NCBI GenBank assembly: GCA_027309085.1
Contig: DAIDDL010000002.1
Coordinates: 47,063 to 111,062, forward strand
DNA length: 64,000 bases
Direction of reading: 5' to 3'
Source: Sulfobacillus sp.
Lineage (GTDB): Bacteria > Bacillota > Sulfobacillia > Sulfobacillales > Sulfobacillaceae
Part shown: positions 2,755-24,454 of the stretch, one piece after another
Layout of the letters: each line of letters opens with the position of its first letter
Position numbering within the stretch: the first letter of the stretch is position 1
Program-made: the position numbers and the translations under genes
The notes under the pieces: generated by a model
Seen by the model: the letters and a program-made list of their open reading frames with translations, nothing else
What the model was told of the DNA's origin: nothing
Database searches by the model: none

Positions 2755-2791
2755 GCGCTTAGCGCAATTAATACTGTTGAGGAGATATTCC

Positions 2792-5741: not shown

Positions 5742-5809
5742 AAGACAAACACCTCCTCTATATCGACTTGATAATGAAAGATGTCGAGGATTCTTTTCTG
5801 ACATGTTTA

Positions 5810-7720: not shown

Positions 7721-7742
7721 TGTGATTCTCCCCCTCGTCTCG

Positions 7743-9125: not shown

Positions 9126-9335
9126 ATTAGTCCCTCCAATTTCGTGGGTCTCAATCCGCCCAGTTACTTACGGTCACTTGTTCCATTTCCACTCAAAGAA
9201 CAAGCTAGCGGCCCTTTCCCTGCACCGTTCCCCTGGGTAAAGCAATGCCTCGAATTAGTACTCACTGGCGAGAATCCCTCGGAAGCAATTCATGCAACAA
9301 CATTGTTTCCGGGATATTTCTCGAAAATATGGTGG

Positions 9336-9551
9336 CTATCCCCACCACAGTGGTACACGGCTGCGCACCTTTCTGCGCGGGTTCTGGGGTCTCGGTGCGG
9401 AGCAGTGAAAACAGAGCTCTTGTTCCGCTATTCTTTGGGCATAATCAAAAGGCCACTGGATATAGATCGTATCGTCGTGCCCACACTGCCGGCGCACCTG
9501 AACAGGAAATGTCCTCTCGGCGGTGGACACCCTATTGGTATCAAATGCCAT
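9336..9551 (-). CDS. Small hypothetical protein (71 aa) with CGH...CxxC putative zinc-binding motif
   Basis: Strong RBS GGAGGT 4 nt before ATG; lies co-directionally inside the operon between permease and ligase. Confidence 0.55.
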   Translation of the reverse strand: MAFDTNRVSTAERTFPVQVRRQCGHDDTIYIQWPFDYAQRIAEQELCFHCSAPRPQNPRRKVRSRVPLWWG

Positions 9552-9590
9552 TTGACCTCCATCATATCTTCAAACGGCGAGTTTAAAAAC

Positions 9591-11135
9591 TCACAGTTTG
9601 GCTAACTGGTCCTCACTATCAGATTTTTGGATAATGGCTGGGCCCTTAAATTCATACCGCACCTTGGTGAGATACCAAGTCACGAGCAAGCCTACCACCA
9701 CGACCAACACGACCGGCGTGTAATTAAAATTGCTCAAGGTTACCGGGCGCACTACTGGCAGCGAGAACAAAATGCAGATGAAGATGACCCATCCTACGGC
9801 TAGCCACCCCACAACGCGGCTGTACTTTCCCAAATTCCAAGGGCCCGGTGTAAACCGCTCCGGATGGATGAGCTTCAAAAACGCTGGAGTCACATAGGAA
9901 ATAAATAACCCGATAACGCCAATGGACGTCACGGCAGAATATACGACGGAACTCCACAGTGCGGGAACAGCCAGCAGGAAGGCCAATATGGCCGATAGCC
10001 AAATAGCATTTTGGGGAGAACGGATTTTATTTAATTTCCTCAGTTTTTGGCTGGCAGGAAGCCCTCCATCCCTAGCAAACGCATAGATCATCCGGGAATT
10101 GGCGGTGACCGAGGACATTCCACAAAAAAACATAGCCACAAGAGCCATTGCAAAGAGGAGCGTGCCCCCTACCGAACCCAAACGCGTGGTGAAAATGTAT
10201 AGTACCGGATTCGCAGCCGCCAGGGTCTTAGTCATCGAGGGAATTGAGGCAACCATCCCCAGAAGTAAAATGTAGCCAACAATCCCAGAAATCGCCACGG
10301 AAAGAACGATGCCCCATGACGGAGCCGTTGAAGCCCCGATAGTTTCTTCAGACATATGCGCCGATGCGTCGAATCCGGTAATCGTGTACGATGCCAGCAG
10401 CATGCCAATTAAGAATCCATACCATAGAGGAAACCCTGTGTGGGTCTGGGCAAATCCGTAGATAAATGACCACACATGCACATGATGAGGTGCAAGAAAT
10501 AGGAGAGTGGCCACAATCAGGGTTGCGCCACCAACATGCCACCACACACTGACGTCATTGAGGATGGCGACAATTCTCACTCCGTTGATATTCAATAGTG
10601 CGTGAATCAATAAAAGAACGGCATAGATGCCGAGAGTGGCTTCAACCCCCGGTTGCCCCACCGTAGGGAAATGGGGAGCCCATTGGTTGATCAAGGCATC
10701 AATAAAAATCGCCAGACCATAATCAATGCCCGCAGTAATGGCCACTTGCCCTATAAGGTTAAACCACCCCGTAAACCAACCCCATCCCGATCCTCCAAGC
10801 ATACTGGACCAAAAATACAATCCGCCGGTGGTCGGGAAGGCCGATGCTGTCTCCGCCATATTGAGAGCCACAAACATGACGAATACGGTCACAATAGGCC
10901 AGCCATACGCTGCTGCCGCGGGCCCCGACGCCGTCAGCCCGAACGCAAACAACGTCAACGGCCCGCTAAGAATGGAAATAATCGTGAATGAAATCGCGAA
11001 ATTGGAGAATCCCCCCATCGTGCGATATAACTCCTGCACGTAGCCAAAACGTTTGAGCTCTTGCTCGTCATGCTGGATAGTATCTATTTCCCGCTCGTCG
11101 TGCTGAATAGTATCCGGAGGAACCCTTGGATTCAT
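9591..11135 (-). CDS. APC-superfamily amino acid/amine permease (ACT-like: GABA/choline-type)
   Basis: ~12 TM helices; ELKRFGYVQELYRTMGGFSNFAISFTIISI, SAFPTTGGLYFW and TGFDASAHMSEET motifs. Confidence 0.9.
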   Translation of the reverse strand: MNPRVPPDTIQHDEREIDTIQHDEQELKRFGYVQELYRTMGGFSNFAISFTIISILSGPLTLFAFGLTASGPAAAAYGWPIVTVFVMFVALNMAETASAFPTTGGLYFWSSMLGGSGWGWFTGWFNLIGQVAITAGIDYGLAIFIDALINQWAPHFPTVGQPGVEATLGIYAVLLLIHALLNINGVRIVAILNDVSVWWHVGGATLIVATLLFLAPHHVHVWSFIYGFAQTHTGFPLWYGFLIGMLLASYTITGFDASAHMSEETIGASTAPSWGIVLSVAISGIVGYILLLGMVASIPSMTKTLAAANPVLYIFTTRLGSVGGTLLFAMALVAMFFCGMSSVTANSRMIYAFARDGGLPASQKLRKLNKIRSPQNAIWLSAILAFLLAVPALWSSVVYSAVTSIGVIGLFISYVTPAFLKLIHPERFTPGPWNLGKYSRVVGWLAVGWVIFICILFSLPVVRPVTLSNFNYTPVVLVVVVGLLVTWYLTKVRYEFKGPAIIQKSDSEDQLAKL

Positions 11136-11372
11136 TTTTATTTCCCCTCCCTATTATTTAACAGGCGTGAAGGTGACTGCTACCAGGACGTAGGATGTTA
11201 GGCGAGCCGAGATTTGTGACACGATTCTATCAATATCGTAAGAAGACGGCCCGGCTTGTGCTATAGTCAATTTTTCCGATTTGTCTGTAATTATATAGAT
11301 AGAAATGCACATGCCATTTTATCTATTTCCCCGGAGTTTTCTATTCTCCATAATTTTATCGGGAGGCGGCGG

Positions 11373-12350
11373 ATGAACAACTATCACATAAAGCAGGGAT
11401 TGATGGCGACAAATGATGCACACGCCATGCTGGCAACTGTCGACCTGATAATATTCGACGTCGACGGCGTCTTGGTGGACGCGAGCCAATCCTACCCGTC
11501 GGCGATCCGCGACGCCGTGATCTTGTATTATTCTTTGTTTAATCGCAACAACAATATGAACTGCAGCATTTCTGTCGAAGACGTCAGTCTCTTCAAACAA
11601 GCAGGGGGATTTAACGACGAATGGCATTTAGCGTATGCTCTATGTCTATGGGTGATATGGCACAATATTGATACGGACAGCTTGTCTTTACAAGCGTTTG
11701 TTGAACAACTCTCACAACGCGGCGGAGGAGTTCAAGCCGCTGAAGAAATTGTTAAGCAGGCCGCGACTTCTTATTGGGATGTGATTCACACCGTGTGCCA
11801 GCGCGGCATCATAGAAAACATGGCAAAGGAACTCTATGGAGGGGAGGATTCTTGTGAACAGCTCTTTGGCTTCTCTCCGCATTATTTTAAAAAGCCGGGA
11901 TACCATCATTTGGAACGCGACCTCATAAATCCCTCGCACTTATCGCGGTGGCAAGGCCGGGTGGGAATCTATACGGGCCGCAATGAGCCCGAGACACAAT
12001 TCGTCTTGCGCAGATCTGGATTGGCCCAGTTTTTTTCGTCGGAGAACTGCCTCACCACCGACAGCGGTTACATCAAGCCGGACCCTGAAGGGATAAGATT
12101 TATTTTGGACCATGGGCGATACGAGAGAGCTCTCTTTATCGGCGATACATTGGATGACTTACGTACCGTTGATGGATACCGCACCCGTTACCCCCATGCC
12201 GCTCCCCTTTATTTTGCGGGCATCACCCAAGGAGCAATGGGTCCAAACAGCGAGCGTATTTTTGCTCAGCACCACGCAGATTTTATCGCTCCCGACGCGG
12301 CCACTCTCATCACAGCCCTCAATGGCCTGACACGCCTCGCGAGTGAATAA
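11373..12350 (+). CDS. HAD-superfamily hydrolase (phosphatase)
   Basis: Motif I FDVDGVLVD, motif II TGR, motif III KPDP, motif IV IGDTLDD; RBS GGGAGG before ATG 11373. Confidence 0.85.
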   Translation: MNNYHIKQGLMATNDAHAMLATVDLIIFDVDGVLVDASQSYPSAIRDAVILYYSLFNRNNNMNCSISVEDVSLFKQAGGFNDEWHLAYALCLWVIWHNIDTDSLSLQAFVEQLSQRGGGVQAAEEIVKQAATSYWDVIHTVCQRGIIENMAKELYGGEDSCEQLFGFSPHYFKKPGYHHLERDLINPSHLSRWQGRVGIYTGRNEPETQFVLRRSGLAQFFSSENCLTTDSGYIKPDPEGIRFILDHGRYERALFIGDTLDDLRTVDGYRTRYPHAAPLYFAGITQGAMGPNSERIFAQHHADFIAPDAATLITALNGLTRLASE

Positions 12351-13947
12351 GATGAGCTCCCTCAACGCGCGGCGAGCAAGAGCGCCATTGCTTCCCGCAT
12401 CCACAGCACTGATGTCTCCATGGGGAGCTTTTGTATATAATGCTTTGACAATGGGAGTCATTTTCCCTTGGATTTTTGTGGTGGGACCAGGGGTTTTCCC
12501 CAATGGCAATGTCATTCTAGGAATCGGGCTGGGCATTCTTCTCCAATTGCCTTTGGCTTTATCGTATTCATCTCTTGCGACAGTGCTGCCTAGCACGGGT
12601 GGTGATTACAGCTATCAATCGCGTACACTGGGGAAGGGAATTGGTTTTGTCGTCGTCTTTAGTGGCCTTGTATTATGGGTTCTACAGTGGTTAGCCATCT
12701 CGGGATGGATGATCACGTCGCTAGGCATTTCCCCGCTCCTACTGTCACTGGGGATTATCACCCGCAACCCGGAGCTGACCCACTGGGGCCTCATCGTGCA
12801 AGAACCACTTGCCGTAGCCATCATCAGCATCGTATTTGCTGGGGCAGCCACGATCATGCTCATCCGGGGATTCCATGTATATCTGCGCTTGCAATCACTC
12901 ATATTCATCCTGACGCTGCTTGCTACTTTGCTCATGATCCTATTATTCCTGTCAACGGGGCACCAGGATTTTGTGAGGCAATTTAATTCCTTCGCATATA
13001 ACTTGATGGGCCGCAAAGATCTGTATCATCAGATCCTTATCACCGCGCACCGCGAGGGATGGGCTCCGTTGGCGAAAGGTGACTTTTGGAGCTCCCTGGC
13101 TATTGCTCCCGTGGCTTGGATTAATTTGCAGTGGTGCACGTATAGCGTGGAGCAGGGATCCGAGGTGCGAAACAATGGGCGGTTGCTGACGAACGTGAAG
13201 GTGATGACGGGCTCACTGCTATTTATCGGGGCCACTCTCATGTTGCTGGCACGCGCCGAAAATCATGCCGCCACCCATCAGTTTTTGTCGGCCTTTTCCT
13301 ATTTGTACATGCGCGCCCCAACTATTAGTCCCCTGCGCCCGTTCCCCGGTCTCCTCGCTCTGACTCTCACCCGCAATCCTTGGGTGACTATAGCCATATC
13401 ATGTGGGTTCATTGCCAACAGCTTTCAAATATATGCCAATAGTTACACGGGGGTCACCCGGATTCTGGCCAAAATGGCTGATGACCGCGTCCTGCCGCGG
13501 TGGATAGGCGAAAGACATCCCCGTTATAACACACTGGCGAACGCCCATCTCGCTTACTTTTTTGCTGGCGTAATCTGGATTGCGATATACAACCTTTATC
13601 CCTACGGGATCAGATATACCCTTGATGTGGTCTTCGCCAATGGGTACGTTTTTGTGGTATCAGCGGGCATTGCGGCCATGCTTGTGCCTTACCGGCTCTC
13701 TCGCGAATGGGCAGCCGCACCCGTGCCCCATGGCACATTCCTCGAAGTTCCGTGGATCACTTGGGTCGGGGGACTCAGTATGGCCACTGGAGGCTTCATG
13801 CTTGGCATGCTTCTTTTCGACCAAAATTATGGGGTGTCCACCCCCCTCCCCTTTTCACTGATGACAGGCCTCATTCTCCTCGCCCTTGTGATTTACATGT
13901 TGCGAAAGTCACTGCACGTCCTCAACAGCGCACCGTCCGATAAGTAA
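12343..13947 (+). CDS. APC-family permease
   Basis: ~12 TM helices, LPSTGGDYSYQSRTLG motif; overlaps the HAD stop. Confidence 0.85.
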   Translation: MNKMSSLNARRARAPLLPASTALMSPWGAFVYNALTMGVIFPWIFVVGPGVFPNGNVILGIGLGILLQLPLALSYSSLATVLPSTGGDYSYQSRTLGKGIGFVVVFSGLVLWVLQWLAISGWMITSLGISPLLLSLGIITRNPELTHWGLIVQEPLAVAIISIVFAGAATIMLIRGFHVYLRLQSLIFILTLLATLLMILLFLSTGHQDFVRQFNSFAYNLMGRKDLYHQILITAHREGWAPLAKGDFWSSLAIAPVAWINLQWCTYSVEQGSEVRNNGRLLTNVKVMTGSLLFIGATLMLLARAENHAATHQFLSAFSYLYMRAPTISPLRPFPGLLALTLTRNPWVTIAISCGFIANSFQIYANSYTGVTRILAKMADDRVLPRWIGERHPRYNTLANAHLAYFFAGVIWIAIYNLYPYGIRYTLDVVFANGYVFVVSAGIAAMLVPYRLSREWAAAPVPHGTFLEVPWITWVGGLSMATGGFMLGMLLFDQNYGVSTPLPFSLMTGLILLALVIYMLRKSLHVLNSAPSDK

Positions 13948-14677
13948 CCAATGCTGCGTGCACCAGTTGCCCGCGGCCGCAGCCCCGCTTTGGCGTGCGG
14001 CCCATTCATTACTGCCTGACCGAAAGAAGGCAACGCCTGGACTCTCGAACTTGCCCCAAATGATTCCCAGAGGGAATGCCAGCGCATGATGCCCCAGACA
14101 CCAGTTTTCTTAGAGAGAGGATGATCGCTGTCTAACACCGTCACGTGCACAATCTCGCGGGGTTAACCGCCTGTCTGCCCTCGCGAGACGCGGTGCCTCG
14201 GTCCGGCCATTCTCTGGGTCACCGGCTCATCTATCCGGCATCGGGACCATCACTTGGCACAGCGGTCAATCACTTGGGAATGGTCGGAATCCCCAATATG
14301 CAGAGTGTGCACGGTGACGGTTTTGGATATCATTCATACCCCATGATTCCCGGGAATTCAATACAGCCAAGCCACTTTCTGCCGCTCAGGAGTTTCTCTT
14401 CAACCGTGAATATTCTCGCACAAAAGTAGCGTTTACAGTATAATGAGACAACGAGACTGGGGCTTTAGCTGGGCAGGATTAAGTAGGCAAATTTTCCTGT
14501 GCCGGAGCAGTGTCCCCGGGAGTTAATTGGGCACCGTGCCCATGATAAGAAATCACCGTCGTGCCATAATATTAACTATTATCAATTGGAAAGTGAGGGT
14601 GACAAGAATAGTAAAACGAGAATAACCGTTTGCCACTACGAATAAGTGGGCCTCGACGTTTAAACGTTTAAAGGAGA

Positions 14678-15910
14678 TTGTTTATGGCAGCTCAAAAAAC
14701 ACAGACCATGAATGGACGTCTGATAACCTTAGCGGCTGTGGCTCGGTATGGTAGCGTTTTTTGTGTTTTTTTGAGTTATTTTGATCAGCCGAATCTTTCT
14801 TGGCCACGCATAACCAGTGCATTGCTGCTCTTCTGGGCCTTACTGGCTGCTTTCCAGGACAGGCGACCCGCAGACGATTCCGTGTTGTTGTGGGTTGCTC
14901 TGGAAATCGGGCAGGGACTGGTCGTGTTCTTTATTGGCCTGAGCGTAGACAACTCTGGATGGTATTGGATTTTGTATCTTATTCTCATTATGAGTACTAG
15001 CTTGACCATTCCCTTCCGTTATGGAGGTGGAATACTGCTCATGCTTTTTATGATGCGCGTAGTCAACTTTATGTGGACCAGCACATTGAGTACGGCTGCA
15101 TTTATGCAATCCTTCGTCACGACACTGTGGTTGTGGATTCTTTTATCTCTTACCGGATATATTGTGGTTAACAAGCTGGACGAAATGAATGCCTTGGAAA
15201 AAATGGCCCAAAAATTGACCAGCTCAAATCAGCAATTGACGGCCGCCTACGACAAGCTGCAGGAGTATTCCCGCGAGCTCGAAGAAACGGCCGCACTTCG
15301 GGAACGGGCGCGAATCGCCAGAGAAATCCATGATTCGCTCGGACACAATATGATTGGGCTCGTTTTGCAACTGGAAGCAGCTAGCCGTTCCTTAGCTCAG
15401 GATCCCCCGCTCTCCGCCGATCATCTTCATAACGCCCTTCAGTTGGCTAAATTGGCCACAACCGAAATGCGTCATGCGGTAAAAGCTCTGAGACCACCCC
15501 TGTTGATTCCCGGGCAAATTATCCTGGCCCTCGAACGGCTGATTGATGATTTCTCTGCTGTGACGGGGGTTGACGTGGAGTTTTTAACAAATCTGCAAGA
15601 ATTTGTTTTGGCGGACCAGGTCGAGATAACGGTTTACCGTTCCGTACAGGAAGCCCTGACAAACGCCTACCGCCACGGCGGTGCCAACAATATCCTGGTG
15701 CATATCCGGCAATGCAGTCACTGGATGGCGGTCCGTGTGCATGATGATGGCTTGGGCGTAACGCAGGTTCAAGAAAATTTTGGCCTCGACACCATGAGAA
15801 GGCGAACTGAGCAGGCCGGGGGAACTATAAGGTTCCGGAGCCGCATTCATCACGGTTTCACGATCTTCTTAATAGTACCTATCGGCAACGCACGCTTCGC
15901 TGGAAGTTGA
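14678..15910 (+). CDS. Membrane sensor histidine kinase (HisKA_3; DesK/NarX/LiaS type)
   Basis: N-terminal TMs, ERARIAREIHDSLGH H-box, QEALTNAYRHG N-box, DDGLG G-box. Confidence 0.92.
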   Translation: MFMAAQKTQTMNGRLITLAAVARYGSVFCVFLSYFDQPNLSWPRITSALLLFWALLAAFQDRRPADDSVLLWVALEIGQGLVVFFIGLSVDNSGWYWILYLILIMSTSLTIPFRYGGGILLMLFMMRVVNFMWTSTLSTAAFMQSFVTTLWLWILLSLTGYIVVNKLDEMNALEKMAQKLTSSNQQLTAAYDKLQEYSRELEETAALRERARIAREIHDSLGHNMIGLVLQLEAASRSLAQDPPLSADHLHNALQLAKLATTEMRHAVKALRPPLLIPGQIILALERLIDDFSAVTGVDVEFLTNLQEFVLADQVEITVYRSVQEALTNAYRHGGANNILVHIRQCSHWMAVRVHDDGLGVTQVQENFGLDTMRRRTEQAGGTIRFRSRIHHGFTIFLIVPIGNARFAGS

Positions 15911-15935
15911 CGCAGACTAATGGAGGGGCAATACC

Positions 15936-16658
15936 ATGGAGATCATACGTGTCATGATTGTTGACGATCAAACGTTAGTGTGTCACGGCATTCAAACGAT
16001 TTTAGATATGGAGCCTGACATTTCGGTGGTGGCCATGGCGTCGAACGGCCGTGAGGCGATAAATTATGCGCGGAATCTCCAACCCGACATTATTTTGATG
16101 GACCTCAACATGCCGGTAATGGACGGCGTCCAGAGCACGCGGGAGATCGTGCGCGAAATTCCATCCAGTCGCATTATCATTCTCACCATATTCGATGATG
16201 ATAATTACGTGTTTGAGGGGGTCTCTGCGGGGGCCATCGGCTATTTGATGAAGGATGTGTCGGCAGAAGACTTGATTAATTCCGTGAGAACGGTAGCCCG
16301 TGGGGGGGCGATGGTCGCTCCCCATGTTGCTGCGAAGATTTTAAAACAGTTCGGCCGCCTAACACGGTCCACCTCCCCCTCCCTGGACAAAGTCGCGCAG
16401 CCAGCGGAGAATCATCTCAAGCGCGAAGACTCCCACAGCTACGGGTTGACAAACCGCGAGTGGGATATCCTAGATTGCCTGGCACGGGGCTATAGCAATA
16501 AGAAGATCGCTGAAAGTCTCCATATAGCGGACGGTACCGTCAAAAACCATATTTGCCATATTTTTGATAAGCTTCAGTTGCGTGACCGCACGCAAGTGGC
16601 CCTGTTTGCCGTAAAAAATCGCCCCCCTGATTCGCGTAGACCCTTGTCCAAAGCCTGA
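15936..16658 (+). CDS. NarL/LuxR-family response regulator
   Basis: Receiver (VDDQ, MDLNMP, GYLMKD) plus LuxR HTH (LTNREWDIL..GYSNKKIA..TVKNHI). Confidence 0.95.
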   Translation: MEIIRVMIVDDQTLVCHGIQTILDMEPDISVVAMASNGREAINYARNLQPDIILMDLNMPVMDGVQSTREIVREIPSSRIIILTIFDDDNYVFEGVSAGAIGYLMKDVSAEDLINSVRTVARGGAMVAPHVAAKILKQFGRLTRSTSPSLDKVAQPAENHLKREDSHSYGLTNREWDILDCLARGYSNKKIAESLHIADGTVKNHICHIFDKLQLRDRTQVALFAVKNRPPDSRRPLSKA

Positions 16659-16727
16659 ACGCGTAGGCTTTAAGGACTACAATTGGTTAAAAATAGAGAA
16701 AACGGTCTATTTTCGCGTTTGGTTTGG

Positions 16728-16744
16728 TGGTCTACAGTAGACCA
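16728..16744. promoter_or_regulatory. Perfect palindrome, candidate operator of the kinase-gcvT-like-ALDH operon
   Basis: TGGTCTAC-A-GTAGACCA; a second inverted repeat AAAATAGA-N8-TCTATTTT lies at 16690-16713. Confidence 0.45.
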
Positions 16745-16797
16745 ATGGACGGTAAATCTTGTTTGGCAATAAACGCACAAGGAATGGGGGTGTTCTT

Positions 16798-17724
16798 GTG
16801 ACTAGGCATACACCGCAAACCCTGGAAACTGTGTTGCGGACGTCAATCCCTGAGTGGAAAGAGTTATCCTTATCTACAAAACATGTATCGGGAGGCATGA
16901 CAAACGAAAATTTTTGCGTTCAAGCCGGTGACCAGGCCTTTTTTGTGAGGTTGAGTGACCGCAACAGTCAAAGATTGGGCATTGACCGCAATGATGAATA
17001 TGCTGCCGCCTATGAAGCCGCCAAAATAGGCGTAGGTCCCCAGGTGCATGCGTATTTTCCCTTTCAGAGGATATTGATTACCCATTATATTGCCGGCCGT
17101 TCTCTGCTGTCGCAAGACTTCCATTCAACACAACGCCTCGATGAATTTATTGACCTCCTCTACCGAGTGCATCAATCGAAGCTGTCCATCAAGCCGTTCT
17201 CTGTCTTCGCCGTTGTTGGCAATTACTGGAATATCATCCGGGACCACCCGGCCAACCTTCCCGAGAATATTGGAGACATTTTATCTCTCGCTAGTGTCAT
17301 TGAGGATTATATTCCCGACGAGCCCACGACTCTGTGTCACAACGACTTGCTAGCAGCGAATTTCCTGGCTGACCATCAAACCCACCGCCTGTGGTTGGTC
17401 GATTGGGAGTACGCGGGCAGAGGCAGCCTCTATTTTGATTTAGGAAATTTTTGTGCGAATCAAGAACTTCCCGTGACTTTGGAACGATATTTGGTCGAAC
17501 GCTATTTTTCTTACCGGAATGTTGAGTACCATTTGGCCTGTGTTCGCCTGATGCGGATAATGTCCGATATCAGGGAAGCCTTTTGGGGGCTGGTCCAGCA
17601 CTGCCTGTCTCCTCTTTCGGTAGATTTTCTTGCCTATGCCGAACTGCATCTCAAGCGGGTTGAAAAAGCGATCGAAGCATCCGAATTGGATATGAATTTG
17701 AAGGTTATAGCCCAATGGCGCTGA
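16798..17724 (+). CDS. Choline/ethanolamine kinase family phosphotransferase (APH-like)
   Basis: GGMTNEN, CHNDLLAANFL (Brenner motif), VDWEYAG, YFDLGN. GTG start at 16798 inferred from the RBS; the ORF opens from 16759. Confidence 0.88.
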   Translation: MTRHTPQTLETVLRTSIPEWKELSLSTKHVSGGMTNENFCVQAGDQAFFVRLSDRNSQRLGIDRNDEYAAAYEAAKIGVGPQVHAYFPFQRILITHYIAGRSLLSQDFHSTQRLDEFIDLLYRVHQSKLSIKPFSVFAVVGNYWNIIRDHPANLPENIGDILSLASVIEDYIPDEPTTLCHNDLLAANFLADHQTHRLWLVDWEYAGRGSLYFDLGNFCANQELPVTLERYLVERYFSYRNVEYHLACVRLMRIMSDIREAFWGLVQHCLSPLSVDFLAYAELHLKRVEKAIEASELDMNLKVIAQWR

Positions 17725-17771
17725 CAACATTTTCCCCATTTCACTACTATCCATTCAAAGAAGGGTGAAGA

Positions 17772-20201
17772 ATGAAATCACAAGCACAGGTCGTCATTAT
17801 TGGTGGTGGAGTCGCCGGAACGAGTATCGCTTATCATCTAACCCGTCTGGGTTGGCATGATATTATCTTGCTGGACCGTAACGAACTCACCAGTGGGTCC
17901 ACCTTTCATTCGGCTGGATTAGTGGGACAGTTGCGCTCCTCTGTTTCATTGACCAAAATGCTGATGTACAGCGCGCAACTCTACCGCCGCTTGAAACAAG
18001 AAACGGGTGTCGATATTGGGTGGAGCGAAATCGGTAGTTTGCGGCTGGCATCAACACGGGAACGTTATGAAGAACTGGAGCGCCAAGCCGGCTGGGCCAA
18101 GTCTTTTGGCCTGCCTATGGAGTTAATCAGCCCAGCCGAAGCCAAAGAACTTTTCCCACTGATGGACGCGCAAGGCGTGTTCGGGGCTGCTTACCTGCCC
18201 ACCGATGGGTATCTGGATCCTAGCAGCCTGACCCAAGCGCTGGCTAGGGGTGCGCGTCAGGGCGGGGCTGACATTGAAACCTTCACGCGGGTCACTGGCA
18301 TCGACACTGAGCGAGGGCGCGTCAAACGCGTCATCACGGACAAAGGCACGATTGCCACAGAGATTGTCGTTGACGCCGGAGGAATGTACGCCAACGATAT
18401 CGGCAACCTCGCTAACGTTACCGTCCCCCTCATCCCCATGCAACACCAATATATTATAACAGAAGCGCTGAATGCGCCTAGTGAGATGATGGAGCGTCTT
18501 CCAACGATGCGGGACCCGGACAACTTGGTGTATTTTCGCCGCTGGGGTCAAGGCCTCGTGATGGGAGGCTACGAGCGCACCCCTGAGCCGTGGGGCCTGT
18601 CCGGCATCCCGGCCACATTCAATGGGCAACTTCTATCTCCTGATATGGACCGTTTCCTGCCGATAATGGAAGGGGCCATCAAACGGGTGCCGATAATGGA
18701 AAGCGCTGGAATTCAGACCTTCATTAATGGCCCGGAAGCGTTCACGCCCGATGGAGAGTTCATCCTAGGGGAGTCCGACGTTTCAGGATTTTTTGTAGCC
18801 GCGGGCTTTTGCGCTCACGGCATTGCGGGAGCTGGCGGTGTCGGCCGGATGATGGCTGAATGGATTGTAGAGGGTGAACCGTCTCTGGATTTGTGGAAGA
18901 TGGATATCCGCCGATTTGGACCCCAATACCGTGGCAGACAGCTGGCCCTTGAACGGACGAAGGAAATTTACCAGACCTACTACGATATCCGTTATCCTCA
19001 TGAAGAATACTTAAGCGCGCGTCCCCTGCGCCTATCCCCTGCCTACCCTGCTCTCGTGGCCTTACAGGCAGAATTTGGAGAAAAGGCGAACTGGGAACGC
19101 GTGAATTGGTTCCGGTCTAATGAAATAAACTCCGGCGATATAGACCGTCCCCACGGATGGGCGGGGCAAGTCTGGTCCTCTGCCATTGGAGTGGAACATC
19201 TGGCCACGCGTGAGCGGGTCGGTTTGTTTGACGAAACGTCGTTTAGCAAATTAGAAATCGGAGGGTCCGATGCGTTGGCTTTTTTACAGCACCTCTGTGA
19301 TAATGACATCGACCAGCCACCGGGCACGATCGTTTACACCCAGTTGCTGAACTCGCGCGGGGGCATTGAATGCGACTTGACGATCACACGTCTGGCTCAG
19401 GATAGATTTCGCCTGATCACAGGCACCGCTTTTGGCTACCATGATATGGGCTGGATTAAGAAGCACTTAGATCCAGAAAAACAGATCTACATCCAAGACG
19501 TGACCTCACAGCTCGCCTGTATTGCATTATGGGGCCCGCTGTCCCGCGATGTGCTGCAGCCTTTAGCCTCTAAAAGTCTCGCGGGTGACCAGTTTCCTTA
19601 CATGACGGCACAAGAGCTCTTTGTTGGCGACATCCCCTGTTTGGCTGCACGCGTGACATTTGTTGGCGAGTTGGGTTGGGAATTGTATTGTCCCATGGAA
19701 TTCGGCTTGGCTCTGTGGAACGTGCTCTACAACGCGGGGCAGCCATTCGGACTCATAGCCGGCGGGTACCGCGCGATCGATTCACTCCGGCTGGAAAAGG
19801 GATTCCGTGTATGGGGCTCCGATGTTACTCCGGAAACGACGCCACTGGAGGCGGGCCTCGGGTTTTGTGTAAAAATGGACAAACCGGGCGGGTTTATCGG
19901 CCGCGACGCCTTATTAGCCCAGCGTAGTGAGGGATTACAGCAGCGGCTGAGATGTTTGGTTTTGGATGACCCCCAGTCTGTCGCTGAAGAAGGCGAACCC
20001 GTTCAGTTTCAAGGAGATGTCATAGGGCGCGTTAGAAGCGGCGGCTATGGTTATTCTCTTCAGAAAAGTTTAGCGTATGCTTATCTGCCGCTGCATATCA
20101 AGGTGGGTGAGCGCGTTAGTGTCGAAGTGATGGGACAGTGGATCCCCGCGACCGTGATGAAAGAACCCATTATGGCACGCGCTCCCGGTCTGACTCAATA
20201 G
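17772..20201 (+). CDS. GcvT-family FAD-dependent oxidoreductase (dimethylglycine/sarcosine dehydrogenase-like)
   Basis: 809 aa: GGGVAG FAD motif, GSTFHSAGLV, NGPEAFTPDG, aminomethyltransferase domain (SLRLEKG). Confidence 0.92.
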   Translation: MKSQAQVVIIGGGVAGTSIAYHLTRLGWHDIILLDRNELTSGSTFHSAGLVGQLRSSVSLTKMLMYSAQLYRRLKQETGVDIGWSEIGSLRLASTRERYEELERQAGWAKSFGLPMELISPAEAKELFPLMDAQGVFGAAYLPTDGYLDPSSLTQALARGARQGGADIETFTRVTGIDTERGRVKRVITDKGTIATEIVVDAGGMYANDIGNLANVTVPLIPMQHQYIITEALNAPSEMMERLPTMRDPDNLVYFRRWGQGLVMGGYERTPEPWGLSGIPATFNGQLLSPDMDRFLPIMEGAIKRVPIMESAGIQTFINGPEAFTPDGEFILGESDVSGFFVAAGFCAHGIAGAGGVGRMMAEWIVEGEPSLDLWKMDIRRFGPQYRGRQLALERTKEIYQTYYDIRYPHEEYLSARPLRLSPAYPALVALQAEFGEKANWERVNWFRSNEINSGDIDRPHGWAGQVWSSAIGVEHLATRERVGLFDETSFSKLEIGGSDALAFLQHLCDNDIDQPPGTIVYTQLLNSRGGIECDLTITRLAQDRFRLITGTAFGYHDMGWIKKHLDPEKQIYIQDVTSQLACIALWGPLSRDVLQPLASKSLAGDQFPYMTAQELFVGDIPCLAARVTFVGELGWELYCPMEFGLALWNVLYNAGQPFGLIAGGYRAIDSLRLEKGFRVWGSDVTPETTPLEAGLGFCVKMDKPGGFIGRDALLAQRSEGLQQRLRCLVLDDPQSVAEEGEPVQFQGDVIGRVRSGGYGYSLQKSLAYAYLPLHIKVGERVSVEVMGQWIPATVMKEPIMARAPGLTQ

Positions 20202-20287
20202 ACTATGATTAATTGCGGAGGCTCCATAACAGGAGTCGACGCCCTTGCTTGATGGCTTTCATTATACAAAGAGGGGTGATTGGTCCG

Positions 20288-21745
20288 ATGGTTTCCAGCG
20301 AACGTTCTGTGTGGCAGGCTTGGATAAATGGACGGTGGACCGACAGTATCAGCGGGCAAAAATTCAGCGTTGACGAACCAGCCACCGGATTGCGCTTAGC
20401 TGAGGTATCCAAACTTTCCTCAGAAGATGTGGACCAGGCAGTCAGCATCGCAAAACGCCAATTCGATAGTCAGCAGTGGAGTGGAATTTCCGCGACGGCT
20501 CGCGGAAAAGTTTTGTACCGTCTAGCCACTTTAATCCACGACAACGCAGATGTTCTGGCTCAATGGGAAACGCGGCAAGGCGGCAAAACGTTTCAAGATT
20601 CTCTTGATGAAGTACACACAGCAGCGGATTGCTTTGAATATTATGCTGGCGCAGCGAATAAGATTTTCGGCCACACGATTCCTGTTTCCGCCAAGGGCTT
20701 GGATTACACTCTTCGCGTTCCTGTAGGGGTGGTCGCCCTAATCGTTCCATGGAACTTTCCGTTTTTAATTACGGCATGGAAAGTCGCTCCAGCCTTGGCG
20801 GCTGGCAACAGTGTCATTGTGAAACCAGCAAGCTACACTCCCCTCACAGCTTTGGCACTCGGCGAGTTGACAGCCGAAGCGGGAATTCCTGATGGAATAT
20901 TTAACGTTACTCCCGGCCCCGGCAGTGAAGTTGGGGAAGCACTCGTATCCGATCCCAGGGTTGACAAGATTGCATTTACAGGCGAGACCACCACAGGGAC
21001 TCGCATCCTGCAACTCGCAGCGCCCGGAATAAAGCGTGTGTCACTTGAACTGGGAGGCAAATCTCCTACGATTGCTTTTAGCGGCATAGATATTGAGCGT
21101 TTCGCCAAGCTTGCTGTGCAGTCCGCATACGGCAACGCTGGCCAGGACTGTTGCGCCCGGAGCCGGGTCCTTGTTGAACGCAAAATTCTTGAACCGTTCA
21201 CCGAAGCTTTTGTACGCAACGTGAAATCATTAAGCGTCGGAAACCCATTTGATCCTCACACGGCAGTCGGTCCTCTTGTATCCCAGGCGCATCGCAACCG
21301 CGTTTCGCATTACATTGACCTAGGCCTTGAAGAGGGGGGCACACTGGCTATGGAGCCCGAAGACCGGAATGTGCCGGAACAAGGCTACTACCTCGCTCCC
21401 GTGGTGTTTACCAACGTCAATTCACAAATGGCGATTGTCCGCGAGGAAATTTTTGGCCCTGTCAGTTCCATCCAGGCCTTTGATACGGAAGAGGAGGCCA
21501 TCAGACTGGCCAATGACACGCCCTATGGTCTGGCTGGCTCCATATTCTCGAACTCTGTTGGCCAAGCTCTTAGAGTCGCGGCGGCTGTGCGTACTGGCGT
21601 CATGAGCGTCAACAGCATTAAAAGCGTCCACCTGGAGGCTCCATTCGGCGGCTTTAAGCAAAGTGGCCTAGGACGCGAACTAGGTATGGAAGCCTTCGAT
21701 CACTACACGGAAACAAAGAACATCTTTGTTTCTCTAGACGATTGA
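20288..21745 (+). CDS. NAD-dependent aldehyde dehydrogenase
   Basis: PWNFP, FTGET, LELGGKSP (catalytic Glu), GQDCCAR (catalytic Cys), EEIFGPV, PFGGFKQSGLGRE. Confidence 0.95.
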   Translation: MVSSERSVWQAWINGRWTDSISGQKFSVDEPATGLRLAEVSKLSSEDVDQAVSIAKRQFDSQQWSGISATARGKVLYRLATLIHDNADVLAQWETRQGGKTFQDSLDEVHTAADCFEYYAGAANKIFGHTIPVSAKGLDYTLRVPVGVVALIVPWNFPFLITAWKVAPALAAGNSVIVKPASYTPLTALALGELTAEAGIPDGIFNVTPGPGSEVGEALVSDPRVDKIAFTGETTTGTRILQLAAPGIKRVSLELGGKSPTIAFSGIDIERFAKLAVQSAYGNAGQDCCARSRVLVERKILEPFTEAFVRNVKSLSVGNPFDPHTAVGPLVSQAHRNRVSHYIDLGLEEGGTLAMEPEDRNVPEQGYYLAPVVFTNVNSQMAIVREEIFGPVSSIQAFDTEEEAIRLANDTPYGLAGSIFSNSVGQALRVAAAVRTGVMSVNSIKSVHLEAPFGGFKQSGLGRELGMEAFDHYTETKNIFVSLDD

Positions 21746-21816: not shown

Positions 21817-22098
21817 AAACAAATCTACAGAATGGGCCGTACCGCCTCAATCAATCGACCCGGAAGCATCAATTGCTTTTGGGCTTTAGAGGAAATCATA
21901 ACCGCCCTTGTCACGATACGACGAGGACCGCGCCGGCATTAAAATTGTCTTGAGGATGGACCGAAACCTCAAAGGAGGATGCGCAAGGCCAAGATGAGTT
22001 GACCGCCATAAATGGCAGCGCCCCATGATAAGTTTTCATAGTCCTTTGTCTTGATACCGATCGCCTTCCGGGCGTTGCAGGGCCGGTCAAAAACTTTC

Positions 22099-22152
22099 AA
22101 CCATAAAGAAACAGCGGAGTCCCCTGCGGGATTCCGCTGTTTCTTTATGGTT
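22099..22152. terminator. Long (25-bp) bidirectional terminator hairpin after the CotF-like gene
   Basis: AACCATAAAGAAACAGCGGAGTCCC-CTGC-GGGATTCCGCTGTTTCTTTATGGTT; one G-U/mismatch. Confidence 0.75.
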
Positions 22153-22760
22153 CAGGAGGGTAATACGGCATTTGCGCCGGTCCAGTCGCCGTCTGTATGG
22201 GCAGACCCGTGCGTGGATGCGATCAGTTGCTCGTGATTCTGTCTGAACCACTGCTCAGCATTGTCCGTCGCCCCAAGAGGGACGTACCATCCCTTCATTT
22301 CCATAAAGCGGTAAAACTCATAAGCCGCATCGAGGTGGTACCGAGCCATCTCCGACAGGGCGCGGCGGATGCCAACGTGAGAAATTTCTGTGGCAGCCCA
22401 GATCGTGCGCACCGTCATGCTCTTGGAATAGTCCAGAAGATCTGCGGCAATCACGCGGTCCGAAAAGCCCTGCCCCACTTTCGGTTGGACTGGTGAGGGC
22501 GACTGAGAGGCAGATGTCCGCGGGCGGCCTTTGAGTCCCCCGTCAAGTTGCTCAAATTTCTGATTGAGAGACTCGCCATTGGCGATGTCAATCAGCTCGT
22601 TGTAATGCGTTTCTGCCTTGCGGCGCTCGTTCTCCACCATGGATTTTAGATCGGAATCCTGGACGAAAGACAAAAAACCCGTGGCCTTAGCGATCAGGGT
22701 CGCATCAGCGGTGGCGATCTCATGAATCTGCTGGAATTCTGAAGAAGTCAGTTTGGGCAT
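22152..22760 (-). CDS. Spore coat protein, Coat F domain (CotF/YraD-like)
   Basis: C-terminal DRVIAADLL..K......AATE....RRAL....H......Y.FM..KGWY pattern; RBS AAGGAGG. Confidence 0.72.
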   Translation of the reverse strand: MPKLTSSEFQQIHEIATADATLIAKATGFLSFVQDSDLKSMVENERRKAETHYNELIDIANGESLNQKFEQLDGGLKGRPRTSASQSPSPVQPKVGQGFSDRVIAADLLDYSKSMTVRTIWAATEISHVGIRRALSEMARYHLDAAYEFYRFMEMKGWYVPLGATDNAEQWFRQNHEQLIASTHGSAHTDGDWTGANAVLPS

Positions 22761-23152: not shown

Positions 23153-24454
23153 TCATGCGTTATAGTGTTCCGAAACGAGATTCCACAGACCTTTTGATTC
23201 CAGAATCCGGCGGGGCACTTGGAGACTCAGTTGGACCACGCCGGGAAGCCGCGAAATCTGCACTTCCCCACTGACGGTGCCCCGGTTCAAGATTTCATCC
23301 TCACTCATGTTCATAAACCGTGCGGCCCGCGTTACCGCATTGTTGGTGGCCGTGTTGAGATCCTTGCCCGTTCCGATGAATTGGACGGGCAGCATATCCA
23401 GTTCGGGCACCACTCCCAGGTCTTGGCTCAGTTCAGCGAACTGCTTGCGTTCTTCTGGAGAAAATGGCCGAACCATGCGGGGAAGATCTTCAGCATTGGG
23501 CAAGAGCAACGGGCCGTCAATGTCCAGTCCCTTGATCACTTCAACTCTCACTGCAATATCTGCCGTAATGTCGATGCTGTGCCCGGCAATTTCTCCGCGG
23601 CCCATGATGGAGTGTGCGTCGCCCATGTACACCCCGGCCCCGTCCACTTTTACGGGCGCAATCAAGACGGCGCCTGGGCGTACATCGCGGCAGTCCAGAT
23701 GGGCATCGGTCCGCGCCGCGTCTAATTCCTCTTCCGTCACCCTCCACTCATGGTGGGTTCCAATAAGGAAAGAGCCGAAATCTCCGGCATTATGGGAGTC
23801 CGGCAAGGTCCTGGAAGGGATCGTGCCAATATTCCCGATGCAGGGTTCGACTCGCACCGGCAGTCCTGCCAATGCGTGCGCGGCATAGACCAAAATAGAG
23901 TATTGCTGGCTGCTCTCAGGCAATTCTGCCATGGCCCGTGCATCATGCGCATAGTCTTCGGCACGGTCTTGGCCGACCGCCATGGATAAGTGGTGGTCTT
24001 TATCAAACGCCACCGTGTACCCTTGCCCAAAATGAAAGGGACTAGCCTCGCTGCCACAGTGGCGGCACCGGATACTGCCTTCCCCTATCCCCCGCAGTTC
24101 ACTCTGAGGCCAAAGCGTTCCACAGTGAGGACATTTTTTGGCTACAAACGGATCCTCGATGAAGGCAGAGGCATTGGTCTGCATCGTACCGGAACTGGAC
24201 GCCCGAGACACGACGTTGACGGTCTCGATATAAATGGCGACAGCATCACCAATTCTGGCCCCGTCAATATACACCGGCTGGGTCACTTCGTGGCCTCCAC
24301 GAAAGTCCGGGGTAATCATGGGTCCCCAACATCCGGGCGGCGTAATCGCGCGGATGCGGCCTCCGCTTTCTAGTCGGGCGAAAAATCCCGTTTCCGGTCC
24401 AATCAGCCCGTGAGTGAACTGGGTAACCAAAACATCCTTCTCCAGCTTAGCCAA
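23153..24454 (-). CDS. Acetamidase/formamidase family protein
   Basis: GGHEVTQPVYIDGA.IGDAVAI, HNAGDFG, LDCRDVRPGAVL..PVKVDGAGVYMGDAH..G.GEI motifs; TTG start with AAGGAGG. Confidence 0.85.
   Translation of the reverse strand: MAKLEKDVLVTQFTHGLIGPETGFFARLESGGRIRAITPPGCWGPMITPDFRGGHEVTQPVYIDGARIGDAVAIYIETVNVVSRASSSGTMQTNASAFIEDPFVAKKCPHCGTLWPQSELRGIGEGSIRCRHCGSEASPFHFGQGYTVAFDKDHHLSMAVGQDRAEDYAHDARAMAELPESSQQYSILVYAAHALAGLPVRVEPCIGNIGTIPSRTLPDSHNAGDFGSFLIGTHHEWRVTEEELDAARTDAHLDCRDVRPGAVLIAPVKVDGAGVYMGDAHSIMGRGEIAGHSIDITADIAVRVEVIKGLDIDGPLLLPNAEDLPRMVRPFSPEERKQFAELSQDLGVVPELDMLPVQFIGTGKDLNTATNNAVTRAARFMNMSEDEILNRGTVSGEVQISRLPGVVQLSLQVPRRILESKGLWNLVSEHYNA

Follow-up and report, generated by a model that had tools for sequence, protein, structure and literature searches.

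Which substrate would be handled by a gene block in which a choline/ethanolamine-type kinase is encoded directly 5' of a flavoprotein and an aldehyde dehydrogenase (ALDH), and do the operons around it serve the same route? The locus lies in a window of 64,000 nucleotides (the whole stretch of DNA analysed) from Sulfobacillus sp., of which the open reading frames at 1-24.9 kb were scanned with Pfam and NCBIfam. The genes for the kinase (16759-17724), a dimethylglycine (DMG)/sarcosine-dehydrogenase-like flavoprotein with a GcvT-like part (17772-20201) and the ALDH (20213-21745) are all on the plus strand. The genes and domain calls of a previous sequence-only reading were all correct: its block at 11373-21745 was confirmed and runs exactly from the start of a HAD phosphatase gene to the ALDH stop, and the HAD and an APC permease gene lie just upstream, divergent from a minus-strand glutamylation operon, as it had described. 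We put at about 0.55 the probability that the genes at 1-21.7 kb form a single catabolic super-cluster devoted to N-methylated ethanolamines, with N-methyl- and N,N-dimethylethanolamine as the most likely substrates. The enzymatic steps are all inferred; the observations themselves are the domain identities, the conservation of catalytic residues and of gene linkage, a riboswitch and a 12-mer common to two upstream regions. The cluster had been drawn at 4-22 kb; as redrawn it also takes in an ABC importer (1-3865) and a riboswitch-controlled serine dehydratase. Nearly every element of the earlier scheme is supported by comparative genomics.

A gene-neighbourhood analysis of pairs of kinase and GcvT-like genes, the check suggested for this locus, showed that a DMGO-like gene lies no more than 6 kb from the kinase gene in 30 of the 33 related loci whose flanks both reach 1.5 kb or more, and in 21/22 where both reach 3 kb or more. 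The pairing holds at kinase identities of only 34-47%, and its recurrence among related loci indicates that the arrangement is not due to chance. In L006, L007 and L008 the two genes share 4 nt, and outside this lineage they are often translationally coupled. Recurrent neighbours of the pair are genes for APC permeases (the commonest partner), phosphatases, phosphodiesterases, FTHFS (L001, L002 and L012) and the GS-like, SDR, ALDH and amidohydrolase proteins of ethanolamine gamma-glutamylation; in the limited reference set, however, only a minority of loci has ALDH (5/22), GS-like (3/22) or phosphatase (6/22) genes close to the pair, which counts against the super-cluster model. Each related genome carries a subset of the modules beside the pair (ABC, APC, HAD and FTHFS in L001/L099; riboswitch, Sda and two-component system in L004; GS-SDR-ALDH-GATase and two-component system in L006/L102), and the window unites them all. 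This spore-forming host has an unusually complete cluster, which probably serves the breakdown of N-methylated ethanolamines.

The kinase has the choline/ethanolamine-kinase fold (PF01633, 78.9 bits against a cutoff of 29; PF01636). Its true start is likely the GTG at ~16792, because of comparison with a near-identical protein of 308 residues (P0004). The closest PDB matches are 3DXQ and LicA (4R77), and the best NCBIfam match is GntI of guanitoxin biosynthesis (191 bits, under the cutoff of 357). The substrate of GntI also carries a dimethylaminomethyl group. Across 22 homologues neither the Brenner motif (H194-N-D196...N201) nor the D215-W-E-Y motif varies. LicA, the eukaryotic choline/ethanolamine kinases and GntI have this fold as well as the Brenner and choline-kinase motifs; unlike these, the window kinase is without a LicC-type cytidylyltransferase and without a lipid or cell-wall context, and its surroundings are catabolic. 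No lic-type partner was found among the open reading frames scanned at 1-24.9 kb, and the pairing with DMGDH-like flavoproteins holds across many lineages, in agreement with the earlier suggestion that the kinase may have a catabolic or trapping role and not one in cell-wall decoration. Catabolic activation of an amino alcohol by an APH-fold kinase has a counterpart in the mycobacterial (S)-1-amino-2-propanol kinase of the aminoacetone/RMM microcompartment pathway, where the phosphoester passes to a PLP phospho-lyase; in contrast, the window is without PLP phospho-lyase or microcompartment genes. In the proposed pathway the kinase would phosphorylate the hydroxyl group, giving a small cationic amine an anionic handle.

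The flavoprotein (809 aa; DAO, FAO_M, GCV_T and GCV_T_C domains) has the same four-domain FAD plus GcvT architecture as rat DMGDH (4P9S), human DMGDH (5L46) and Arthrobacter DMGO (1PJ5), and matches rat DMGDH (578 bits) and 1PJ5 (525 bits) over its full length. The flavinylated His46, the His225/Tyr254 dyad and the THF-site Asp535 are conserved as in these enzymes. By analogy it should work as they do, oxidizing the amine to an iminium ion and channelling the C1 unit to THF. It differs from them in forming a separate clade that is nearly always kinase-adjacent (52-77% identity within the clade; 43-44% to clade B paralogues), and in a predicted substrate with a phosphate ester in place of the carboxylate. 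R55 is invariant in 37/37 kinase-linked members, the position being occupied by His in DMGDH and by Asn in DMGO; R269, H349 and R380 are likewise clade-specific and invariant, and E322 is clade-specific. R55 and R269 are not proven phosphate binders, because the clade B paralogues, also kinase-paired, are without them. The flavoprotein is predicted to be a THF-dependent N-demethylase of 2-(methylamino)ethyl phosphate: it would oxidize the N-methyl group of the phosphoester, pass the C1 unit on as 5,10-methylene-THF and leave phosphoethanolamine.

The substrates, for which (methylated) ethanolamines in general, choline included, had been suggested, can be narrowed. N-Methyl- and N,N-dimethylethanolamine, a secondary and a tertiary amine, are the likely ones for the flavoprotein route. 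Choline is unlikely as a flavoprotein substrate: flavin-type amine oxidation needs a lone pair, which a quaternary amine lacks, and the genome gave no match to a Rieske-type, GbcA-like betaine demethylase (tblastn, one Rieske query). Phosphorylation before demethylation, with the methyl group ending on THF, is known from the MthK/MthB/MthC/MthA system of Eubacterium limosum, where the gene for a kinase with the choline-kinase motif likewise adjoins an N-demethylase gene; phosphorylation by MthK allows MthB to demethylate choline, the phosphate has been proposed as a stand-in for a carboxylate, and the product DMAE-phosphate is recycled as phosphoryl donor (PMC12155760). MthB is an anaerobic, corrinoid-dependent member of the MttB family acting on a quaternary amine (PMC12155760), whereas the window has a predicted aerobic flavoprotein, confined to tertiary and secondary amines, together with a phosphatase and no corrinoid proteins. 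No published description of a flavin-type kinase/demethylase step was found; E. limosum MthK/MthB is its published anaerobic analogue.

The HAD-superfamily phosphatase with a large cap (11373-12350, plus strand; PF00702, 50 bits; TIGR01548, 82 bits, under cutoff) likely starts at Met40 (11373), the longest open reading frame beginning at 11256. Motifs I-IV are intact (D29xD31, T201, K in GYIKPDP, G257-D258-x-x-D261-D262). It is predicted to be a phosphoethanolamine phosphatase and would free ethanolamine. That a phosphatase belongs to the pathway, as had been proposed, agrees with its recurrence as a partner from two unrelated families: HAD in the window, L001 (adjoining the DMGO-like gene, 42% identity) and L097, and IMPase in at least eight other loci, among them L008, L023, L024, L039, L041, L045, L065 and L093, the L008 gene overlapping the flavoprotein stop.

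Ethanolamine would then enter the glutamylation operon, which is also linked to the pair in independent loci. Its minus-strand genes encode a GS-like gamma-glutamyl-amine ligase (7743-9125; PF00120, 318 bits; 416 bits to PDB 5DM3, full length), an SDR (6950-7768; PF13561, 221 bits) and a class II (Ntn, EgtC-like) amidotransferase-fold protein (6117-6872; PF13230, 62.7 bits; EgtC model 70 bits, under cutoff), with predicted functions as ethanolamine gamma-glutamylase, gamma-glutamylethanolamide dehydrogenase and gamma-glutamylglycine amidohydrolase, respectively. The orthologues in the GS-SDR-ALDH-GATase operon of L006 are 68%, 70% and 40% identical, the last closing that operon. As the sequence-only reading had pointed out, no ALDH is encoded among the window's minus-strand APC permease, ligase, SDR and GATase genes. 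Its idea that the ALDH at 20213-21745 (NAD(P)-dependent; PF00171, 552 bits) could fill this gap holds, because that enzyme is 67.7% identical to the ALDH inside the L006 operon; it is also 52% identical to an ALDH adjoining SDR and GS-like genes in L068. It is predicted to be the gamma-glutamyl-aminoacetaldehyde dehydrogenase, relocated from the operon. The four enzymes would convert ethanolamine via gamma-glutamyl intermediates to glycine and glutamate, a route already published (PMC10132767; PMC6529630). The same set (ligase, dehydrogenase, ALDH and gamma-glutamyl amidohydrolase) leads to glycine in the Eto systems of Chromohalobacter salexigens, Agrobacterium and Phaeobacter and in the GlnA4 pathway of Streptomyces. 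The window differs from these in the ALDH moved behind the flavoprotein gene, the class II amidohydrolase, predicted uptake by an APC permease instead of a TRAP system, and the joining of a kinase/demethylase/phosphatase front end and a riboswitch-controlled serine dehydratase.

Glycine and methylene-THF would be combined to serine by GlyA, encoded elsewhere, and serine converted to pyruvate and NH3 by the iron-sulfur L-serine ammonia-lyase SdaAA/SdaAB (4854-5804 and 4165-4857, minus strand; TIGR00719, 210 bits, and TIGR00718, 342 bits, for the pair, both over cutoff). The sdaAA gene product is the only homologue found in the genome (single tblastn match). A tandem glycine riboswitch (5802-6000, minus strand) directly 5' of sdaAA would switch expression; its two aptamers score 52.4 and 46.6 bits (RF00504, gathering score 32) and the tandem model RF03166 gives 77.9 bits (E 7e-15). 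The riboswitch also precedes sdaAA/sdaAB in L004, where the sda genes lie directly 5' of the histidine kinase, response regulator, kinase and DMGO-like genes.

Amines would be taken up by APC permease A (9591-11135, minus strand; TIGR00907-like), the divergent APC-superfamily permease B (12343-13947, plus strand; PF13520, 68 bits), or both; alternatively the ABC system would import a phosphoester or phosphonate analogue. Permease A is 82% identical to an L001 permease that adjoins HAD, DMGO-like and kinase genes and has no glutamylation genes there. The start of permease B overlaps the HAD stop by 8 nt, and its relatives (25-39% identity) adjoin the second pairs of kinase and DMGO-like genes, those of clade B, in L022 and L080. 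The ABC importer (plus strand; SBP at 1-1071, cut by the window start; permeases at 1088-1984 and 1972-2754; ATPase with TOBE at 2738-3865) is PhnS/PhnT2-like at scores under those cutoffs (Pfam, NCBIfam). In L001/L099 its orthologues (74-86% identity) adjoin the genes for the APC permease, HAD, DMGO-like protein and kinase, and L008 and L097 have more distant ones.

The flavoprotein might instead be an ordinary sarcosine/DMG oxidase or dehydrogenase, and the cluster the last part of a catabolic route for glycine betaine, choline or creatine (sarcosine to glycine and CH2-THF, then serine and pyruvate), with kinase and phosphatase serving otherwise, for example in choline/ethanolamine trapping or recycling. 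Such an enzyme would fit the resemblance to DMGDH and DMGO over the whole length and the retention of every catalytic residue; 525-578 bits to true DMG enzymes, as a third-clade sarcosine/DMG enzyme might score, and the riboswitch, Sda and FTHFS links, which conversion of sarcosine to glycine would explain equally, were both counted against the super-cluster model. We nevertheless regard this explanation as unlikely, since it leaves unaccounted for the near-obligatory, often translationally coupled kinase and the downstream phosphatase from two unrelated families, and has against it the distinct clade with its own invariant active-site-region residues, linkage to ethanolamine rather than betaine genes, and the negative Rieske search. 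Less probable still is oxidative deamination, in which ethanolamine would be converted to phosphoethanolamine by the kinase, to phosphoglycolaldehyde by the flavoprotein, to phosphoglycolate by the ALDH and to glycolate by the HAD enzyme. The gene order kinase-flavoprotein-ALDH would suit it, and HAD-IA enzymes include phosphoglycolate phosphatases; however, the intact GcvT/THF module with its conserved Asp and the FTHFS linkage indicate C1 transfer, the ALDH does not consistently accompany the pair and is orthologous to the glutamylation-operon ALDH, and the GS-like operon would be left unexplained.

It is rather improbable that the system is built for pre-formed phosphorus compounds (N-methylated phosphoethanolamines, phosphocholine breakdown products or N-methyl-2-aminoethylphosphonate) imported by the ABC system and demethylated directly, the kinase only salvaging free amino alcohols. 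The ABC ATPase is closest to PhnT2 and the SBP matches PhnS weakly, the importer accompanies the pair in the window, L001, L008 and L097, and PF01663 phosphodiesterase genes are linked in L008, L024, L041 and L045; but the ABC scores are under the Phn cutoffs (411 bits against 458 for the ATPase), no phosphonatase or C-P lyase genes were seen at 1-24.9 kb in the Pfam and NCBIfam scans, and the APC permeases found in 14/22 loci carry amines rather than phosphoesters. This possibility overlaps the N-methylated ethanolamine pathway and does not exclude it. About equally doubtful is that ABC importer, Sda, glutamylation, HAD/permease, two-component and kinase operons are independent neighbours: every module is found separately in relatives, and sdaAA, as sole genomic copy, could be housekeeping, yet every module recurs beside the pair in different genomes, the ALDH is relocated behind the flavoprotein and two promoter regions have a 12-mer in common. 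The N-methylated ethanolamine pathway would spend 2 ATP per molecule, a cost that was counted against it.

For this pathway a dedicated two-component system had been suggested, and it is supported by its position directly 5' of the kinase gene in three related genomes and by the 12-mer common to the HAD and kinase upstream regions. It consists of a membrane-embedded HisKA_3 histidine kinase (14678-15910, plus strand; ~6 N-terminal transmembrane helices, without periplasmic domain) and a NarL/GerE-type response regulator (15936-16658, plus strand), which would govern both the kinase operon and the promoter region of the HAD/permease genes. Their counterparts (47-53% and 61% identity, respectively) lie directly 5' of the kinase gene in L004/L013 and L006/L015; this synteny is confined to one bacterial family and may reflect simple inheritance. 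Exact matches to the operator-like 12-mer TCTATTTYCSCG occur only twice in the 64-kb window: as TCTATTTCCCCG at 11322-11333 (plus strand) in the divergent promoter region, 51 bp 5' of the HAD start, and as TCTATTTTCGCG at 16706-16717 (plus strand) between the regulator and kinase genes. The former recurs unchanged upstream of the L004 kinase gene; the latter lies inside a 20-nt box, ATAGNGAAAANNGTCTATTT, that is conserved 5' of the kinase gene in L004.

Genes in the window were identified from an ORF listing combined with Pfam and NCBIfam scans, and every gene that the sequence-only reading had named was confirmed at its position. An ABC importer is encoded on the plus strand at 1-3865. The minus strand then carries sdaAA/sdaAB (4165-5804), which lie beyond the glutamylation operon, and the operon itself, with the genes for a class II amidotransferase-fold protein (GATase_4; 6117-6872), an SDR (6950-7768) and a GS-like ligase (7743-9125). 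The gene for APC permease A (9591-11135, minus strand) is separated from the ligase gene by a 465-bp gap (9126-9590) with only a doubtful 71-aa ORF (9336-9551, minus strand), and is divergent from a plus-strand gene for a HAD hydrolase (11373-12350; the longest ORF starts at 11256, and Met40, as in the sequence-only reading, is the plausible start). The gene for permease B, a divergent member of the APC type (12343-13947), overlaps the HAD stop by 8 nt. The 730 bp that follow (13948-14677), up to the histidine kinase gene, hold no credible ORF and are long for an intergenic spacer of this genome; no Rfam match, homologue in related loci or other genome copy was found for this stretch. The plus strand continues with genes for a HisKA_3 histidine kinase with about six transmembrane helices (14678-15910), a NarL/GerE response regulator (15936-16658), a choline/ethanolamine-kinase-fold kinase (16759-17724), an 809-aa flavoprotein with DAO, FAO_M, GCV_T and GCV_T_C domains (17772-20201) and an ALDH (20213-21745).

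The kinase scored 78.9 bits against PF01633, above the curated cutoff of 29, and its best structural relatives in the PDB were 3DXQ (97 bits) and LicA 4R77 (56 bits). The Brenner motif HxDxxxxN (H194-N195-D196...N201) and the choline-kinase motif DWEY...FDLGN (D215-W-E217-Y218...F226-D227-L-G-N230) are both present, and both are invariant in 22 homologues. Its best NCBIfam model was GntI, the guanitoxin kinase (NF041256), whose equivalog cutoff was not reached (191 vs 357 bits). The earlier remark that the kinase has no lic-type cytidylyltransferase partner was borne out: a search for partners of Lic-type phosphocholine decoration detected no nucleotidyltransferase, either in the ORFs scanned between 1 and 24.9 kb or in the Pfam-annotated neighbourhoods of kinase homologues.

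The domain scores of the flavoprotein (DAO, 245 bits; FAO_M, 65; GCV_T, 251; GCV_T_C, 67) describe the architecture of DMGDH, DMGO and SARDH, and full-length alignments were obtained with rat DMGDH (4P9S, 578 bits), human DMGDH (564 bits) and Arthrobacter DMGO (1PJ5, 525 bits). H46, H225, Y254 and D535 align with H48, H225, Y259 and the Asp of the RSDIT segment of DMGO; the His that is flavinylated (H46), the catalytic His/Tyr pair (H225, Y254; described in PMC5082570) and the folate-site Asp (D535) are thus retained. Since these catalytic and folate residues are kept, the flavoprotein is predicted from its sequence to oxidise an N-alkyl amine and should hand the C1 unit to THF. An alignment compared 37 kinase-linked flavoproteins with two characterised enzymes, DMGDH and DMGO. 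R55, nine residues C-terminal of the flavinylated His, is invariant among the 37, and the same site is His in DMGDH and Asn in DMGO; the equivalent segment of human DMGDH bears the tunnel-lining His109. R269, E322, H349 and R380 are likewise clade-specific in this alignment. Such residues would fit a more anionic substrate, short of proof.

More than 3000 kinase homologues were found in the searched collection at E ≤ 1e-10. The nearest (42-47% identity) come from Bacillota MAGs, including one of Sulfobacillus benefaciens, and the remainder (about 35-40% identity) from soil metagenomes and from MAGs labelled Chloroflexi, Dormibacteraeota, Gaiellaceae and Gemmatimonadales. A search of genome contigs with the single kinase sequence returned two short loci only, and a metagenome search with an alignment was productive. 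In annotated neighbourhoods, a gene for an 808-812-aa FAD and GcvT protein lies directly 3' of the kinase gene, with an overlap of 4 nt in three loci (L006, L007 and L008). The comparison of neighbourhoods of kinase and GcvT-like pairs that the sequence-only reading had proposed covered 91 loci scored against a labelled reference set. Where both flanks extended to at least 1.5 kb, 30 of 33 loci had a DMGO-like gene no further than 6 kb from the kinase; for flanks of 3 kb or more, the figure was 21 of 22. The adjacency noted earlier is therefore conserved. Genes in the metagenome loci were called crudely, as longest ORFs with BLAST labels from the reference set, and partner frequencies are therefore lower bounds. 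The kinase is rare in the phylum of the window (2 of 401 sampled genomes), missing from the eight other species of the genus and found in four other genomes of the family; this scattered occurrence indicates an accessory, patchily distributed module.

Three loci (L098, at 9997-17051, L022 and L080) carry two paralogous kinase/flavoprotein pairs. The flavoprotein of the second group (clade B) is 43-44% identical to the window protein, is accompanied by a relative of the odd permease B and, in L022, is even without the flavinylation His. Clade B flavoproteins do not have R55, R269 and other clade-specific residues.

APC permeases are the commonest partner of the pair (14 of 22 loci), and an ABC importer with a TOBE ATPase was found near it in L001, L008, L097 and elsewhere. 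A HAD phosphatase gene stands beside the pair in the window, L001 and L097; in eight other loci (L008, L023, L024, L039, L041, L045, L065 and L093) an IMPase-family gene is immediately 3' of the flavoprotein gene, overlapping its stop in L008. That one family replaces another, unrelated one at the same position is the strongest indication of a phosphate ester that is formed and subsequently cleaved. The HAD protein of the window (50 bits against PF00702; 42% identical to that of L001) has motifs I-IV intact (D29-V-D31; T201; the K of GYIKPDP; G257-D258-T-L-D261-D262) and did not reach the TIGR01548 equivalog (82 vs 140 bits). Other partners were PF01663 phosphodiesterases (four loci), FTHFS (L001, L002 and L012) and genes for GS-like, SDR, ALDH and GATase_4 proteins (L006, L032, L054, L068, L086 and L090). 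In L097 (133-11431), the genes for the flavoprotein, the kinase, the HAD protein and an ABC importer have a Rieske ring-hydroxylase-type oxygenase as neighbour, which could be the enzyme that strips a quaternary amine such as phosphocholine of its first methyl group.

Modules that three genomes of the same family hold apart are brought together in the window. One (G018, locus L001/L099) has ABC, APC, HAD, flavoprotein, kinase and FTHFS genes; a second (G023, L004) has a glycine riboswitch, sdaAA, sdaAB, the histidine kinase, the response regulator, the kinase and the flavoprotein; in the third (G009, L006/L102), GATase, ALDH, SDR, GS and AsnC-regulator genes are followed by those for the histidine kinase, response regulator, kinase and flavoprotein. 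The modules are linked by three protein identities, those of the HAD protein (given above), of the ALDH (given below) and of permease A. The last shares 82% of its residues with its L001 orthologue, near which there are no glutamylation genes, so that permease A may be transcribed separately from the glutamylation genes.

The GS-like ligase, a candidate ethanolamine gamma-glutamylase, matched PDB 5DM3, the ethanolamine-pathway enzyme of Chromohalobacter salexigens, over its full length (416 bits). Companions for the glutamylation pathway are encoded within the operon (SDR and GATase_4) and outside it (ALDH, 20213-21745). Our ligase, SDR and ALDH are 68%, 70% and 67.7% identical, respectively, to their counterparts inside the GS-SDR-ALDH-GATase operon of L006. 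This orthology directly supports the earlier suggestion that the step absent from the divergent operon could be provided by the ALDH encoded behind the flavoprotein. In Phaeobacter, C. salexigens and Agrobacterium, four enzymes convert ethanolamine to glycine via gamma-glutamylethanolamide, an aldehyde and gamma-glutamylglycine (PMC10132767), and the first step has been published for Streptomyces GlnA4 (PMC6529630). The usual amidohydrolase of ethanolamine gamma-glutamylation is of class I, whereas that of the window is of class II.

A tandem glycine riboswitch (RF00504; 5802-6000, minus strand) ends at the start of sdaAA, and one is likewise found 5' of sdaAA in L004 (5896-6065). The full stretch was initially assigned by Rfam to RF03166, the glycine-GGAnGA variant, under the gathering score of that model; this assignment was dropped, as each aptamer alone passes RF00504 (52.4 and 46.6 bits; gathering score, 32), and the element is a canonical tandem glycine riboswitch. 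The usual target of glycine riboswitches is the glycine-cleavage operon, but here the element would govern the serine dehydratase genes. The glutamylation operon is predicted to end in glycine, which together with methylene-THF would give serine, the substrate of Sda.

A box conserved between the window and L004, ATAGNGAAAANNGTCTATTT, emerged when the sequences 5' of their kinase genes were compared. The 12-mer at the core of this box, TCTATTTYCSCG, occurs without mismatch only twice in the 64 kb (chance expectation about 0.03 by our arithmetic), at 16706, 5' of the kinase gene, and at 11322, 51 bp 5' of the HAD start in the divergent promoter region. A search with one mismatch gave four matches in the window, which is not significant, and a generic repeat search of 3.8-22.2 kb gave chance-level short repeats only, the 12-mer having come from the cross-genome comparison. 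The pattern suggests common control of the HAD and kinase promoter regions through a putative operator, plausibly by the adjacent NarL-type regulator. Synteny with the two-component system is restricted to one family.

The observation made in the sequence-only reading is thus real, and its interpretation as an amino-alcohol pathway is supported. In the route that we propose, an amine would be taken up and its hydroxyl group phosphorylated by the kinase; the flavoprotein would carry out THF-linked oxidative N-demethylation of the phosphoester, and the HAD protein would remove the phosphate. Gamma-glutamylation, two oxidations and hydrolysis would then yield glycine, which with methylene-THF would form serine and, from it, pyruvate. 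Flavin amine oxidation requires a nitrogen lone pair, which excludes the quaternary amine choline as a direct substrate of the flavoprotein; since, moreover, no Rieske GbcA-like gene was found in the genome (tblastn, one Rieske query), N-methyl- and N,N-dimethylethanolamine are the likeliest substrates. The flavoprotein would convert 2-(dimethylamino)ethyl and 2-(methylamino)ethyl phosphate to phosphoethanolamine, and in this genome the methylene-THF and glycine derived from one N-methylethanolamine could be rejoined as one serine under glycine-riboswitch control. With a probability of about one half, the kinase-linked flavoproteins are a new class of aerobic FAD/THF-dependent phospho-base N-demethylases which, with the kinase and phosphatase, form a widespread soil-bacterial module opening methylated ethanolamines to the ethanolamine/glycine/serine pathway.

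Were the flavoprotein an ordinary sarcosine or dimethylglycine enzyme, the links to the riboswitch, Sda and FTHFS would be accounted for, but the kinase and phosphatase would be left unexplained; the gene context argues against N-methylglycine or N,N-dimethylglycine as substrate, and we regard this explanation as unlikely. Still less probable is that the main substrates are imported phosphoesters or N-methyl-aminoethylphosphonate, a proposal that overlaps our own and agrees with the presence of phosphodiesterases and of a PhnS/T-like ABC system. We attach a similarly small probability to unrelated operons lying merely side by side. Oxidative deamination to phosphoglycolate is very improbable, since the flavoprotein keeps its folate module and the ALDH is an orthologue of the one in the L006 operon; like the phosphonate route, it was considered and given a low rank.

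Industry uses N-methyl- and N,N-dimethylethanolamine, which also arise as intermediates of lipid head groups. The genes by which aerobic bacteria break them down are, to our knowledge, poorly defined, and no enzyme for this breakdown was found in the literature searched. Searches on oxidative demethylation of phospho-bases, N-methylethanolamine catabolism and clusters of a kinase with a DMG oxidase likewise returned no description, and identified an anaerobic precedent. In Eubacterium limosum, MthK phosphorylates choline to allow its demethylation by the MttB-family protein MthB, and the authors of that study proposed that the phosphate takes the place of the carboxylate of the usual substrates (PMC12155760). 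The module described here would be the aerobic flavin counterpart of that system; it resembles MthK/MthB in logic and is not a member of it, and no MttB-superfamily methyltransferase, corrinoid protein or corrinoid:THF methyltransferase was found among the scanned ORFs. The proposed N-demethylation would also be the catabolic mirror of the phosphoethanolamine N-methyltransferase route of plants, nematodes and Plasmodium.

We regard the cluster as an especially complete instance of a widespread but undescribed module, in which a kinase, a putative flavin demethylase and a phosphatase are linked to the known pathway of ethanolamine gamma-glutamylation. If the model is true, it gives a function to over 3000 proteins of the searched collection that now carry the label "thiamine kinase-like" or "phosphotransferase", as well as to the "dimethylglycine oxidase" proteins encoded beside them, corrects automatic annotations of such loci as glycine betaine or sarcosine catabolism, and extends the principle of phosphorylation before demethylation from anaerobic corrinoid enzymes to aerobic flavoenzymes. 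The window is a good experimental entry point, with predicted transporters, kinase, demethylase, phosphatase, a full ethanolamine-to-glycine branch, riboswitch and serine dehydratase, and a dedicated regulator in about 22 kb.

Beyond the ALDH gene are a CotF-like spore-coat gene (22152-22760, minus strand) and an acetamidase/formamidase-family gene (23153-24454, minus strand), for neither of which a link to the cluster was found. An inverted repeat with a 25-nt perfect stem (22099-22152) lies between the ALDH and CotF-like genes. It is part of a 68-bp element (22079-22146), of which a 98.5% identical copy is present about 2.4 kb before the window start (contig positions 44659-44726), and which is possibly a short terminator present in several copies or an element of the REP type.
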